The notes under the pieces: generated by a model
Seen by the model: only the letters and a program-made list of their open reading frames with translations
Told to the model about the DNA's origin: nothing
The model's database searches: none
Shown here: piece by piece, positions 35,366-45,926 of the stretch
Layout of the letters: every line of letters starts with the position of its first letter
Numbering within the stretch: the first letter of the stretch is position 1
Made by a program: the position numbers and the translations under genes
Virus record (IMG/VR): IMGVR_UViG_3300027917_000023
Length of the DNA: 48,816 bases
Reading direction: 5' to 3' (one strand)
Source of the DNA: a virus

Positions 35366-35908
35366 ATGTATGGAATACGTATAGAATACGACATGTATGA
35401 TATGTGGGCAATAACGTCCGAACTACGAGCAAAAGACCCAATAAAGATCGTCACTGTAAAAGAAATATTTGGGCCGTTAGCTCAGCGATTCGTTGACCAG
35501 ATTGGTGGGCGTACTAGAATGGGATGGGTGCTGCAAGATAACACAGGTGATGCTGTCAAATTAAGTCGCAAATTCGGGATTGAAGAGTGTAAGTTGTGTG
35601 TAGAAAGCAGGTTGACCGGCTGGCATGTACTTGGTGACACCAAAGAATCGTTAGATATCACGGTTGTGGTCGAAGCAAGCCCAAAAGTGCTAAGCAACCC
35701 TGACCGTAAAAGCGTATGGATTAGAATGGTAGTCGTCGACGAGGCAAATGGGTATCAACGACACATATTCTATAGTGATGGGACACTTTTTTATTATTGG
35801 GGGCGCACCAATTCTATAGTGTTCACCCACGCCCTCAGGTATGGTGCAGTATTAGATTTGGAACTGGTAGCCATATTAAGAGAAAAGATGGAGTCGCATG
35901 AATTGTAA
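35366..35908 (+). CDS. Hypothetical protein (180 aa)
   Basis: ORF only. Confidence 0.5.
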   Translation: MYGIRIEYDMYDMWAITSELRAKDPIKIVTVKEIFGPLAQRFVDQIGGRTRMGWVLQDNTGDAVKLSRKFGIEECKLCVESRLTGWHVLGDTKESLDITVVVEASPKVLSNPDRKSVWIRMVVVDEANGYQRHIFYSDGTLFYYWGRTNSIVFTHALRYGAVLDLELVAILREKMESHEL

Positions 35909-37817: not shown

Positions 37818-37893
37818 GGGGCAGTGGTGTAGTGGCTAACACACTGGCCTGTCAAGCCAGAGATCGCGGGTTCAAGTCCCGTCTGTCCCGCCA
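37818..37893 (+). tRNA. tRNA-Asp (anticodon GTC)
   Basis: Acceptor ggggcag/ctgtccc. Anticodon arm ctggc-ctgtcaa-gccag. T arm gcggg-ttcaagt-cccgt. 3' GCCA. Confidence 0.85.
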
Positions 37894-38346
37894 GGCCCAG
37901 AGATTTGGGTTCAAATCCCATGACCAGCAGGATGAGTAAGCCTGTTGTGATAGCTTAATCTGGTAAAGTGCTGGGCGTGATTACGAAGCCAGAAAATACT
38001 GGCACAATATAGAGAGAAACCGGAAGCGGGGGTTCGAATCCCTCCCATCGCAGGATGAATAAACCTGTTCGGGTGGCCTAGTCATGAGTTGGCTTGCAGA
38101 ATGAATAACTCTGCTTGGGGCTATACCTGGTGGTAGTTTAGCGGCAGAACGCCGGTTCGAAAATGAAGCCAGAGGCGCGGGTTCGATTCCCGCCTCCCCC
38201 CTCATCTAGAGGGCTAGGATGAGTAAGCCTACGCAGCGGGGAGTAGCTCAGTGGTAGAGCACTGGCTAAAAGAAAAGCCAGAGATAACCCCTGGGCAAGC
38301 AGTGGGATGAGTAAGCCCACTCAGGTAGGATTAACTCTGGCATTAA
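37894..38346 (+). repeat. Array of degenerate tRNA-like units (5' and 3' half-like pieces related to tRNA-Asp/Arg) separated by a conserved 13-nt motif GGATGAGTAAGCC (4 copies)
   Basis: Motif at 37930-37942, 38053-38065 (ggatgaataaacc), 38217-38229 and 38305-38317. Each is preceded by variable/T-arm/acceptor-3'-like sequence and followed by acceptor-5'/D-arm-like sequence (e.g. 38231-38262 cggggag-ta-gctc-agtggta-gagc-a-ctggc). No unit folds into a complete cloverleaf. Confidence 0.5.
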
Positions 38347-38421: not shown

Positions 38422-38439
38422 ACCAGCGTGGTCCTCTAC

Positions 38440-38545
38440 AAGAATTTCAGACGTTCTCTTTGGGAGGTTGCAGGTTCGAGTCCTGTCCCCCGGATCATCC
38501 GGGGGTAGCTCAATTTGGTAGAGCGCTAGTCATTTTATTCTTGTT
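38440..38545 (+). other. tRNA 3'-half (T arm + acceptor 3' strand) joined through a 3-nt loop to a tRNA 5'-half (acceptor 5' strand + D arm): candidate circularly permuted tRNA or decayed tandem duplicate
   Basis: gcagg-ttcgagt-cctgt then cccccgga (38487-94), tca, tccggggg (38498-505), then ta-gctc-aatttggta-gagc-g-ctagt. The 8-bp acceptor complement forms a hairpin across the junction. Confidence 0.4.
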
Positions 38546-38646
38546 CAATGACCCGCATTTTTAATAATTTTTCATCGGGCTCCGCGCCGGACTTAGTCTC
38601 CATAAGTATTTTAATCATAGAATTACGTTAAGGACAAAAGAGGTGT

Positions 38647-38877
38647 ATGATGGTCAGGATCGGTGCCGTTGCGGGAACCGCTGCAGTAGCAGTAACATAC
38701 CTCATAATCTTCTTCATCATGTCTAACCTAGAGCGAAAGCATGGGCAGACACCTAACTCTGATTACATGGCAGGTGTATTGGGTGTGCTTCTGGCGTGTG
38801 GGGTTCTATTGATAGATCTAATCTTCTTCATCGTATGGATCGTGAGCAATTTTGGGGCGGTAGCTCAGCCTGGTTAG
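38647..38877 (+). CDS. Small two-TM membrane protein (paralog B of 35135..35350)
   Basis: 76-aa ORF MMVRIGAVAGTAAVAVTYLIIFFIM...LIFFIVWIV, with SD aaaagaggtg. Confidence 0.5.
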   Translation: MMVRIGAVAGTAAVAVTYLIIFFIMSNLERKHGQTPNSDYMAGVLGVLLACGVLLIDLIFFIVWIVSNFGAVAQPG

Positions 38878-38906: not shown

Positions 38907-39119
38907 ATGAATATCATCCTACCATTCGAATCATTTCCTTTACTATACGAATCACGAACCAGGACCCTCAAAAATGGTCAGAAATACAGGATCATTATGT
39001 ATCGCAATGGACGCCAGAGAATAATCGGGTTCTACGTAAAAGATTATAATGATGGTTGGTGTGTCTCACATTCAATTGGCGTTACTAAAAACGACCTAAA
39101 ACGAATGTTAGAATGTTAA
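38907..39119 (+). CDS. Hypothetical protein (70 aa)
   Basis: ORF with SD ggagata. Confidence 0.45.
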   Translation: MNIILPFESFPLLYESRTRTLKNGQKYRIIMYRNGRQRIIGFYVKDYNDGWCVSHSIGVTKNDLKRMLEC

Positions 39120-40726: not shown

Positions 40727-40802
40727 TCTTGGGGGTTGCGCATCCATAACACGCAAATGGGAGTTGTTCCACGACCAGCCACCCATTTATCATTAAAGGC
40801 CA

Positions 40803-40848
40803 CGAGTTTTGCAGACTCGCGTGGAAAGTTCGATTCCTTCAACTCTCA
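40803..40848 (+). pseudogene. tRNA 3'-part-like fragment (Ala-type anticodon arm cgagt-tttgcag-actcg + T arm) lacking a 5' acceptor
   Basis: Anticodon-arm and ttcgatt T-loop features are present, but there is no pairing 5' strand. Confidence 0.3.
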
Positions 40849-40852
40849 TAAA

Positions 40853-40926
40853 TGCCCCGTAGTGTAATGGAAGCACGAGCGGCTTTGACCCGCTTAGCGA
40901 AAGTTCGAACCTTTCCGGGGCAACCA
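40853..40926 (+). tRNA. tRNA-Gln (anticodon TTG)
   Basis: Acceptor tgccccg/cggggca. Anticodon arm agcgg-ctttgac-ccgct. T arm gaaag-ttcgaac-ctttc. 3' ACCA. Confidence 0.8.
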
Positions 40927-41115
40927 GATCACCCGAGCCACCGCTGGAAACAGAGGAAGGTCAGGACACCACTGCTTAAGGTGGGAGGGAATTTTCCCGC
41001 TTACCACCAAGGGTGCAATCTCAAGCAGGCTGAGAGTGTGAGCAGCTCTACGAAAGCCGGGTAGAGAGCAAAGATTAATGGTGGCATAGAACAGAATCCT
41101 GCCTACTGGGTGATC
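40927..41115 (+). ncRNA. Structured non-coding element (~190 nt) closed by an 8-bp helix
   Basis: gatcaccc (40927-34) pairs with gggtgatc (41108-15). Internal helices ggtgg/ccacc and gctctac/gtagagc. Contains ggaaggtcagg. Starts at the base after tRNA-Gln. Confidence 0.3.
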
Positions 41116-41175
41116 TTTGATATTAAAGTATTTTATTACTCGTTTATATGATTCACATCAAAACCTGATAACTAT

Positions 41176-41326
41176 GGGGAAGTAGCTCAACAGGATAGAG
41201 TTAGTATGGCGGACCTACATCTTGTAGTCCTATCTATCGGCTAGTGCAGATAGGCAACGCCAGATGGACGGACCGTCAGAATACCCCGTATGGGTGACGT
41301 GGGTTCGAGTCCCACCTTCTCCACCA
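41176..41326 (+). tRNA. tRNA-like element (151 nt) with canonical acceptor stem (G3:U70), D arm, T arm and ACCA end, plus a ~75-nt internal insertion in place of or within the anticodon region
   Basis: 5' ggggaag-ta-gctc-aacaggata-gagt. 3' gtggg-ttcgagt-cccac-cttctcc-a-cca. The 7-bp acceptor includes G3:U70. The insertion forms hairpins ggacctac/gtagtcc and cctatct/agatagg. A possible class-II-like variable hairpin ccc-gtat-ggg is present. Confidence 0.35.
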
Positions 41327-41623
41327 ATGGAAACAACAGAAATATTGAAAGAATTAATCGATGAGCTTGGATATCAAGCCATAATTTATGATCTCATACC
41401 GCATTGGATCGGCGAATGTTACCGAACTATTGATGTAATCAGCCCCAGTACGTGGCCACGCAATAACGTAATCGCTACTATCAAGGTTGACGGCGTCTTC
41501 ATACATATCTTTAAGCGTGTTCTCGGAGGCCGGGGGCGTATAGAATCTAGCCATCAGCTAAGTTTATACGAACCGGATTCATTCTGTAGAATAAAAGAAA
41601 TATTAGCTGAATTAAATGACTAA
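41327..41623 (+). CDS. Small paralog-family protein (98 aa; METTEILKELIDELGYQAI... / ...LSLYEPDSFCRIKEILAELND)
   Basis: ATG immediately follows the CCA of the upstream tRNA-like element (0-nt spacer, no SD). The ORF-track start 41264 lies inside the tRNA-like element and is rejected. Confidence 0.55.
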   Translation: METTEILKELIDELGYQAIIYDLIPHWIGECYRTIDVISPSTWPRNNVIATIKVDGVFIHIFKRVLGGRGRIESSHQLSLYEPDSFCRIKEILAELND

Positions 41624-45463: not shown

Positions 45464-45465
45464 TA

Positions 45466-45538
45466 AGGTCAGAGATCCGGGTTCAAATCCCGGCGGTACC
45501 GGCCATACTGTAGCTTAACTTGGTAGAGCGCTGGCCAC
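45466..45538 (+). pseudogene. tRNA fragments: 3'-half-like (gtcagagat-ccggg-ttcaaat-cccgg-cggtacc) followed by a 5'-fragment gtagcttaacttggtagagcgctggcc
   Basis: The 5' fragment is near-identical to 38506-38532. The 3'-half resembles the fragment following tRNA-Asp at 37894-37930. Confidence 0.3.
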
Positions 45539-45540
45539 GA

Positions 45541-45614
45541 GTCCCTGTGGTGTAACGGTAGCACGGCACTCTGATAAGGTGTAGGCGAAGGTTCAACTCC
45601 TTCCAGGGGCACCA
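45541..45614 (+). tRNA. tRNA-Ile (anticodon GAT)
   Basis: Acceptor gtccctg/caggggc. D arm gtgt-aacggta-gcac. Anticodon arm gcact-ctgataa-ggtgt. T arm gaagg-ttcaact-ccttc. 3' ACCA. Confidence 0.8.
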
Positions 45615-45926
45615 ATGAACGAATGTGAAATGATAGCAAAAGAGCTACGAATCCATGGCGTCAAAGCGTTCTATAACGACGAACATATGTTTGGGATAAT
45701 CAAACCGCACACGCCAATGTATAGCAGTAGCAAATACGGAGATAGTGGCTTCGGGAGGTTGGTCACATTCACGGTTAAGGATGGGATAATAATCTGCTCA
45801 GATAAAGACCGGATTTATAATTTACACGAACCAAGATCATTGGGTCAGCTCATAAAGTCAATCAAGTTGTGTGAACAAAGGACAAGTTGCCATCAAAAAT
45901 GCGAGTTTAAAAGCCGAAATATGTGA
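45615..45926 (+). CDS. Small paralog-family protein (103 aa; ...IYNLHEPRSLGQLIKSIKLCEQ...)
   Basis: ATG directly abuts the CCA of tRNA-Ile (0-nt spacer, no SD). Confidence 0.55.
   Translation: MNECEMIAKELRIHGVKAFYNDEHMFGIIKPHTPMYSSSKYGDSGFGRLVTFTVKDGIIICSDKDRIYNLHEPRSLGQLIKSIKLCEQRTSCHQKCEFKSRNM

Follow-up and report, generated by a model that had tools for sequence, protein, structure and literature searches.

What kind of RNA would be made from a gene that has the acceptor, D, and T arms of a tRNA but no anticodon? This question is raised by a 151-nucleotide (nt) element on the plus strand of the virus record IMGVR_UViG_3300027917_000023 from IMG/VR, at positions 41176 to 41326. The stretch of DNA that was analyzed, called the window throughout, is 48,816 nt long and is part of a 261,688-bp metagenomic contig (ENA ERZ27279932, k141_869270). 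A preliminary description of this DNA had placed the element at these positions, and the coordinates proved exact when the features it named were read from the sequence. The element combines a complete upper half of the tRNA-Ala type, which ends in an encoded CCA, with a class II-like variable hairpin, and it has no anticodon. As an explanation, we favor a tRNA-Ala-derived, non-decoding tRNA mimic that binds or titrates a tRNA-recognizing factor, serves as a processing mark, or does both, and we give this reading a probability somewhat below one-half (about 0.45).

The element resides in a genomic region rich in tRNA genes. In the first 34.5 kb of the window, the minus strand carries T4-type structural genes, including gp13-, gp15-, and gp19-like genes and genes for sheath and baseplate proteins. 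The plus strand carries a tRNA island from about 36.9 to 47.2 kb, in which ARAGORN identifies 18 tRNAs. Most of these have an encoded CCA, and small open reading frames (ORFs) without family assignment are interspersed among them. The 151-nt element is located inside this dense island, on the same strand as the tRNAs. Because T4-type structural genes and a tRNA island occur together on a contig of 261,688 bp, we take the source organism to be a jumbo T4-like phage.

The tRNA-like features can be assigned with precision. The 5' strand of the acceptor stem, GGGGAAG (G1 to G7, positions 41176 to 41182), is evident in the sequence and in the alignment to the Rfam tRNA model. It pairs at 7 of 7 positions, including G3:U70, with the 3' strand CUUCUCC (41316 to 41322), which is followed by A73 and an encoded CCA (41323 to 41326); this entire 3' portion (41316 to 41326) was assigned from the sequence and Rfam models. 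The D arm, GCUC-AACAGGAUA-GAGU (41185 to 41201), has a 4-bp stem and a 9-nt loop, carries A14, G18, and G19, and is recovered from the sequence, by Rfam, and by folding. The T arm, GUGGG-UUCGAGU-CCCAC (41299 to 41315), is found in the sequence and by the Rfam tRNA model. The preliminary description called all three arms perfect. This holds for the acceptor and for the T arm, which is canonical as claimed, whereas the D arm is perfect only if G·U pairs are allowed, because one of its four pairs is a G10·U wobble. The 16 pairs of these three stems are all intact, as is every elbow nucleotide.

A covariance search gave the same boundaries. The Rfam tRNA model (RF00005) matches positions 41176 to 41323 with 35.9 bits, compared to a gathering score of 29, and treats the middle of the element as an insertion. 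This match is above chance, with an E value of 5.7e-4 when the whole window is searched against all 4227 families. The preliminary description had considered that a standard tRNA with different ends might be embedded in the region, but the ends given by the covariance model are the same. In its default run, ARAGORN does not call the element as a tRNA. The set of alanine-identity features, G3·U70, A73, and the CCA end, is present in the sequence. The weight originally placed on G3:U70 as an alanine determinant is justified: as described below, a phage tRNA-Ala lineage has this acceptor helix.

The middle of the element departs from the tRNA plan. Between the D and T arms there are 97 nt, compared to 22 to 23 nt in a normal tRNA, which agrees with the net insertion of about 75 nt noted earlier. 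According to folding, the anticodon arm is replaced by a 79-nt segment (41203 to 41281) that provides no 7-nt anticodon loop with U33. Likewise, we found no 5-bp anticodon stem with a 7-nt loop carrying U33 and a purine at position 37 in register with the D and T arms. The initial proposal of a tRNA-like RNA thus survives as a tRNA-like but non-decoding one, given the covariance match and the lack of an anticodon arm.

Downstream of this segment, a short hairpin seen in the fold (UACCC-CGUAU-GGGUG, 41282 to 41296) occupies the position of a class II variable arm. The best matches for the 3' 42 nt are in class II tRNA-Ser and tRNA-Leu genes from Aeh1-like and Bacillus phages, where they cover the variable arm and the T arm, and therefore the hairpin is best interpreted as a variable arm of class II type. 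The 79-nt segment has no second copy and no complement elsewhere in the window. An antisense role for the arm, directed at the RNase P-like RNA, the spacer, or the downstream mRNAs of this locus, was considered and rejected, as the duplex energies are no better than those of shuffled sequence.

Information on the origin of the element came from sequences retrieved with a pattern that required GGGGAAGUAGCUCA...CCUUCUCCACCA, and that therefore imposed the acceptor helix. Two canonical phage tRNA-Ala(UGC) genes (L050 and L051) were retrieved whose acceptor helix is identical to that of the element, including its GGGGAAG strand. Both also share with it U8-A9, the start of the D stem (GCUC), A73-CCA, and U(-1), and the T loop UUCGAGU of L050 is identical as well. 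The difference is in the middle, where the 22 to 23 nt of their anticodon arm and variable loop correspond to 97 nt without an anticodon in the element.

The same pattern retrieved three aberrant relatives. One has an 8-nt anticodon loop (L049, 328 to 406), the second has a 34-nt middle (L052, 1560 to 1646), and the third, from a 376-kb phage, is 112 nt long with a D-loop insertion of about 36 nt (L053, 1568 to 1679). A further gene, on a JGI contig (L013, 55 to 122), is 68 nt long and has an anticodon arm cut to UGGC-GACG-GCCA. The agreement of this short gene with the element extends over both ends and takes in the two nucleotides that precede G1. The acceptor of each of these four genes is exactly GGGGAAG/CUUCUCC-ACCA. 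A second gene in L013 (129 to 206) has an abnormal body and an alanine-type acceptor that is only similar to GGGGAAG/CUUCUCC. The alanine-type genes with abnormal bodies (two in L013, plus L049, L052, and L053) include forms with 8-nt and 11-nt loops.

When seven sequences (the element, L013, and L049 to L053) are aligned, pairing is complete in 112 of 112 stem cells of the acceptor, D, and T helices, and two T-stem pairs have changed in both partners. The search pattern set no condition on the D and T stems, and their integrity suggests that the upper half of the molecule has been maintained while the lower half has been free to change. Such a pattern is expected of RNAs that are recognized without their anticodon, as by alanyl-tRNA synthetase (AlaRS), RNase P, the CCA enzyme, and EF-Tu. 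Judged by its sequence, the element is a derivative of the phage tRNA-Ala lineage with the GGGGAAG/CUUCUCC-ACCA acceptor.

A series of events can be proposed for the production of this tRNA mimic. The element would be transcribed together with the rest of the tRNA island, and RNase P would then cut between U(-1) and G1. Substrates with U(-1), G1:C72, and RCCA are favored by RNase P. Release at the encoded CCA would occur as for the 18 neighboring tRNAs, and this 3' cut would also leave the next mRNA with a 5' end at its AUG or close to it, as it would at the junction between a tRNA-Ile gene and the ORF at 45615. The expected product is a free 151-nt RNA that carries the AlaRS determinants G3·U70, A73, G2:C71, and G4:C69. 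AlaRS ignores the anticodon, and G3·U70 with A73 is sufficient for alanine identity; for this reason, the RNA is predicted to be an AlaRS substrate. Overall, the element is probably processed and charged like a tRNA, with the free RNA probably alanylated. Since it cannot pair with a codon, the RNA would act outside normal decoding as a stable tRNA mimic, in a role comparable to that of the T4 tRNA-cluster RNA called RNAC.

A more specific version of this explanation holds that the element is a functional, alanine-charged, non-decoding mimic. The tRNA-Ala scaffold would have been re-purposed as in the origin of transfer-messenger RNA (tmRNA), and the long arm would recruit or block a partner. 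We judge this version to be clearly unlikely. Possible roles for such an RNA include a decoy for a tRNA-targeting defense nuclease, a ribosome-rescue or ribosome-blocking factor that carries no tag, and a non-ribosomal donor of alanine. The element may also belong, with the genes of L013, L049, L052, and L053, to a broader and so far undescribed group of remodeled phage tRNA-Ala genes. Because the acceptor helix is all that AlaRS reads, a tRNA-Ala scaffold can remain chargeable after losing its anticodon. Indeed, tmRNA is thought to have arisen from a tRNA-Ala scaffold by loss of the anticodon. If this version were true, the element would represent a second, independent remodeling of tRNA-Ala, which would mean that viruses use this route to generate new aminoacylatable RNAs, and it would provide a small and tractable model.

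Several observations weigh against the tRNA mimic explanation. Within the tRNA-like half, A15 and C48 do not constitute a standard Levitt pair. Among the relatives, the shared acceptor identity cannot be counted as evidence of conservation because the search pattern imposed it. Searches of IMG/VR, JGI metagenomes, GTDB genomes, and INPHARED phages yielded no full-length homologue, and as a consequence the 79-nt arm is without comparative (covariation) support. The only other copy, on a contig from a second sample (L002), is 100% identical and so adds no variation; the samples that carry this phage are ERZ27279932 and SRR6207736. Furthermore, when the cloverleaf core is fixed, the 79-nt segment has two folds of nearly equal energy, a long irregular arm (-52.0 kcal/mol) and a 5-arm multi-hairpin (-50.3 kcal/mol). 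Stability is modestly above that of shuffled sequence, with z = -1.83 for the whole element and z = -2.17 for the arm folded alone.

The searches for homologues took several forms. An exact 30-mer from the 3' end of the element has no match in IMG/VR. A degenerate alanine-type pattern with a gap of 95 to 125 nt was scanned on IMG/VR, JGI metagenomes, and GTDB genomes. This gave a single, unrelated match in IMG/VR (L003), 10 matches in JGI metagenomes that are all tandem tRNAs or archaeal-looking intron-containing tRNA-Ala genes, and a single match in GTDB genomes that is an att-site duplication. Only the 3' parts of tRNAs were matched when the element was compared by blastn with INPHARED (50,697 phage records). 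Likewise, a single-sequence covariance model built from the element (R1) found only ordinary tRNAs on about 400 kb of phage tRNA islands. Searches by way of neighboring proteins were also made: the downstream ORF is an orphan, a neighbor of 547 amino acids (aa) has no relatives in IMG/VR, and a PcfJ-like neighbor of 483 aa is widespread in bacteria but not syntenic. Relatives with 76% to 81% identity in the gp13-like neck protein carry tRNA arrays at the same place, and their contigs end inside these arrays.

The main rival explanation is that the element is a pseudo-tRNA, namely a tRNA-Ala gene whose anticodon arm was destroyed by an insertion or rearrangement and that has no function of its own. 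It would be, at most, a passive site for RNase P and 3' processing between the RNase P-like RNA and the next ORF. We consider this somewhat unlikely. In its favor, the element is a singleton with no conserved homologue, the stability of its arm is unremarkable, and the island has other tRNA debris and odd tRNA-like pieces in addition to two functional tRNA-Ala genes. However, the 16 of 16 intact stem pairs and the intact elbow argue against decay, as do the retention of the encoded CCA and U(-1) and the covarying T stems in other remodeled members of the acceptor lineage. In addition, no repeat of the insertion occurs in the rest of the window. Even as debris or as a processing mark, the element illustrates the organization of jumbo-phage tRNA islands, which mix tRNAs with Y RNA-like modules, a phage RNase P-like RNA, and ORFs that lie directly against tRNA ends.

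The preliminary description also listed an intron-containing tRNA among its candidates. In this reading, an intron or other insertion would be spliced or trimmed by a phage or host activity to yield a decoding tRNA. Other jumbo phage arrays do hold insertion-bearing tRNA genes (L003, L036, L042, and L045), and ARAGORN calls these in intron mode at its default threshold, but the element is not called under the same settings. At an 80% threshold, ARAGORN reports the element as "tRNA-Ser(gga)" with a 57-nt intron and a poor anticodon stem. A deletion of about 59 nt after the D arm leaves AGAUG-GACGGAC-CGUCA, which ARAGORN accepts as Pro(cgg). However, when all deletions of 50- to 89-nt segments were re-run in ARAGORN, the calls were mutually inconsistent (Pro(cgg), Gly(ccc), Ile, and Val).

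An exhaustive excision scan was then made. It covered every single excision that leaves an anticodon stem of at least 4 pairs, a 7-nt loop, U33, and a purine at position 37 in register, and it allowed up to five extra linker nucleotides and a variable region of 3 to 22 nt. There were 0 solutions for the element, and the best excision candidates have A33 or G33 and mismatched stems. In contrast, canonical arms were recovered in 4 of 4 controls (L003, L036, L042, and L045), and therefore the element differs in kind from these insertion-bearing tRNA genes. With a length of 75 to 97 nt, the insertion is also too short for a group I intron. An Rfam search of positions 40800 to 41500 gave no match to a group I or group II intron, self-cleaving ribozyme, riboswitch, or Y RNA at E ≤ 10. 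A bulge-helix-bulge motif, looked for by eye and not by a formal search, was not encountered in the minimum-free-energy fold. Given the failed ARAGORN call, the empty scan, and the lack of an intron family match, the intron candidate was set aside as improbable.

The insertion-bearing tRNA genes of other phages have distinctive features. In L003 (IMGVR_UViG_3300010224_000001, 322 kb), three tRNA genes (961 to 1098, 2029 to 2200, and 2219 to 2378) have anticodon-loop insertions of 60 to 94 nt. The insertions at 2029 to 2200 and 2219 to 2378, which are those examined, contain a permuted tRNA-like domain and thus resemble a "tRNA within a tRNA." The 3' strand of the outer acceptor helices of the L003 genes contains a bulged G, and a G3·U70-like pair is present in two of these helices as well. 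Three other jumbo-phage tRNA genes (L042, 1711 to 1810; L036, 7497 to 7615; L045, 1753 to 1866) carry insertions of 26 to 46 nt in or next to the anticodon arm. These insertions are not group I introns, and their excision restores a canonical cloverleaf.

A miniature tmRNA-like ribosome-rescue RNA, with an alanine-charged tRNA-like domain and a tag template that is very short or absent, is highly improbable. Phages of this kind do encode tmRNAs, and both G3·U70 and the ...CUCCACCA end are common to the element and tmRNA. The Rfam tmRNA model (RF00023) even aligns at both ends of the element, with 31.7 bits. However, this score was obtained in a permissive run and is below the gathering score of 47, and 111 nt are left against 326 model positions. 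The model aligns only the 5' GGGG..G and the 3' ACGUGGGUUCGAGUCCCACCUUCUCCACCA, which are the ends that tmRNA shares with tRNA-Ala. The tmRNA mode of ARAGORN was negative as well, also at the 80% threshold (ps80), and the initial judgment that a tmRNA is unlikely was therefore borne out. A D stem is absent from tmRNA, where SmpB binds instead, but the element has a canonical 4-bp D stem.

The related statement that the element has no tag reading frame requires a partial correction. A 12-codon frame (AUG GCG GAC CUA CAU CUU GUA GUC CUA UCU AUC GGC UAG) is present at element nt 31 to 69, although it lacks the hallmarks of a tmRNA tag. The only closed frames are ADLHLVVLSIG followed by a stop (nt 34 to 69) and a 30-codon frame that ends with NTPYG and a stop beside the T arm. 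The candidate tag ends in ...SIG rather than in a hydrophobic ...AA, and no PK1 was identified. Phage tmRNAs in comparable islands (L034 and L045) are 358 to 389 nt in length and have the typical 5' sequence GGGGxUGAxxxGGxUUCGAC, and the sole phage tmRNA tag identified by ARAGORN (L045) ends in ...ARAA. These full-size tmRNAs (L034, 6 to 363; L045, 2540 to 2928; 100.8 and 87 bits) are on phage contigs that also carry a mini RNase P-like RNA. A GOLLD RNA is present at L042, 5642 to 6103 (178.9 bits), and both the tmRNAs and GOLLD are located next to tRNA arrays.

Finally, it is scarcely credible that the 3' third of the element is the start of a 119-aa protein gene (ATG at 41264) with an incidental resemblance to tRNA, given that, although the frame is open from 41264 in frame with 41327 and was picked by the metagenome gene caller, the tRNA model scores above its gathering score, the paralogues of the downstream ORF align from M1 at 41327 with the extension present in none, and by our own estimate a stretch of 21 open codons occurs by chance about 1 time in 5.

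Returning to the tRNA mimic, we compared the element with known systems. The question of what tRNA-like stable RNAs do in phage tRNA clusters dates from the 1970s, when the T4 RNA called RNAC was sequenced. T4 RNAC (species 1 RNA, rnaC; NC_000866, 70908 to 71046) is the closest analogue of the element. It has a length of 139 nt, so that both are RNAs of about 140 to 150 nt in tRNA clusters of T4-type myophages. Their shared layout comprises an acceptor-like terminal helix, a long internal arm, a second hairpin, and then a canonical T arm. Unlike the element, however, T4 RNAC lacks a D arm, G3·U70, and an encoded CCA, its acceptor helix is imperfect, and it scores only 17.5 bits, on the tRNA-Sec model. 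Of the two, the element is by far the more similar to a tRNA. No homology between them was detectable: model R1 has no match on the T4 RNAC locus (L032, 2909 to 3047) at E ≤ 1, and rnaC relatives are confined to T4-like coliphages. T4 RNAC is described as a tRNA-like stable RNA whose function is unknown (PMC3014915, PMC9697503). The element falls among the tRNA-derived stable RNAs of phage tRNA clusters as a real, unusual, and so far singleton member, and a second example of such an RNA is useful beside T4 RNAC.

Other systems show more limited parallels. As in the tRNA-like domain of tmRNA, the two halves of the element are separated by a large non-tRNA insert, and a T arm and an alanine-type acceptor end (G3·U70 and ACCA) are present. 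In contrast to tmRNA, the element has a full D arm, lacks a pseudoknot, a tag, and a resume codon, and is less than half the usual size. Plant mitochondrial t-elements, MALAT1 mascRNA, and mitochondrial tRNA punctuation all involve non-decoding tRNA shapes that are cut by RNase P and a 3' endonuclease. These define the ends of neighboring transcripts, and the element, whose CCA abuts the next ATG, may be processed in a similar way. However, these systems are eukaryotic or organellar, and the element retains determinants for aminoacylation, which would be superfluous in a pure processing signal.

The Y RNA-like YrlA RNAs of bacteria and phages also join a tRNA-like module to a long stem, and YrlA-like permuted modules are found in the same island as the element. 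Unlike the element, YrlA is circularly permuted, has both its termini in the long stem, and possesses a loop-closed acceptor and a GNCGAA motif. The YrlA model (RF02553) has no match in the element at E ≤ 10, no CGAA motif is present, and the topology is not permuted. YrlA of M. smegmatis is cut by RNase P and receives CCA (PMC4201824).

The immediate neighbors of the element merit description as well. Upstream on the plus strand, directly after a tRNA-Gln(UUG) gene, is an RNase P RNA-like gene of about 197 nt (40925 to 41121) that has a type A catalytic core but lacks a specificity domain. It matches the Rfam model RNaseP_bact_a with 66.5 bits (E = 5.5e-20; gathering score 100). A pattern based on the two P4 strands retrieved 15 IMG/VR loci, among which are 12 clearly homologous RNase P-like copies (L034, L036 to L042, and L044 to L047) of about 190 to 207 nt, mostly within tRNA arrays. 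Two of the 12 score above the Rfam gathering score. Of the 32 predicted pairs in the alignment, 24 have compensatory changes, and a GGUGAGC loop is conserved. In the literature searched, we found no description of such a family of RNase P RNA-like genes (about 190 to 207 nt), which is present in at least 12 jumbo-phage contigs. Between this gene and the element is an AT-rich spacer or 5' leader of 54 nt (41122 to 41175, plus strand), whose sequence ends in ...AACUAU and thus places a U at position -1. Neither promoters nor terminators of consensus type were called from 40926 to 41326.

On the other side of the element, the ATG at 41327 directly follows the CCA, as had been noted, and begins a 98-aa ORF (41327 to 41623, plus strand). 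This ORF belongs to a small family of paralogues among the tRNAs of the island (ORFs at 35898, 39266, 39720, 41327, 44713, 45069, 45615, and 46440; about 100 to 130 aa). An alignment of the N-terminal motif, which resembles xEIxxLxxxLxxxGY (METTEILKELIDELGY..., for example in ORFs 39720, 44713, 45069, and 45615), confirmed the earlier suggestion that the gene at 41327 is a paralogue, although the family is a weak one. The alignment also puts the start of the ORF at 41327 rather than at the in-frame ATG 41264. The family has no Pfam or PHROG match. ORF 41327, the sole member searched and used in the form of the 119-aa call from 41264, has no homologue outside its own phage.

The abutment of the CCA and the next start codon is not restricted to this gene pair. 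A tRNA-Ile gene (45541 to 45614) likewise abuts the ATG at 45615, and ORF stops touch tRNA 5' ends at 39119/39121, 40046, and 45389/45392. Thus, the junction at 41327 reflects a general punctuation of the island and is not specific to the element. This end-to-end packing of ORFs and tRNAs suggests that tRNAs punctuate the mRNAs, which are possibly leaderless. A further argument for leaderless mRNAs, from missing Shine-Dalgarno sites, was dropped as uninformative because about half of the genes of this phage lack such a site.

Other parts of the island hold additional tRNA-like sequences. Circularly permuted, YrlA- or Y RNA-like modules are located at window positions 37891 to 37979, about 38170 to 38275, 38437 to 38548, and 45464 to 45540. 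Their order is T arm, acceptor hairpin, and D arm, closed by a stem, and the top Rfam YrlA score is 44.5 bits compared to a gathering score of 69. Near these modules and the element, we saw no Ro60/TROVE gene. The loop GGAUGAGUAAGCC recurs in the acceptor hairpins of the modules, with five occurrences. Debris or odd tRNA-like pieces are present at 37944 to 38052, 38133 to 38194, and 38850 to 38868. The first of these is another long match to the tRNA model (109 nt, 30.2 bits); it overlaps the permuted modules and has an imperfect acceptor and an odd middle. The piece at 38850 to 38868 is a lone 5' tRNA-Ala-like fragment (GGGGCGGTAGCTCAG) within a small membrane-protein-like ORF and is probably tRNA debris.

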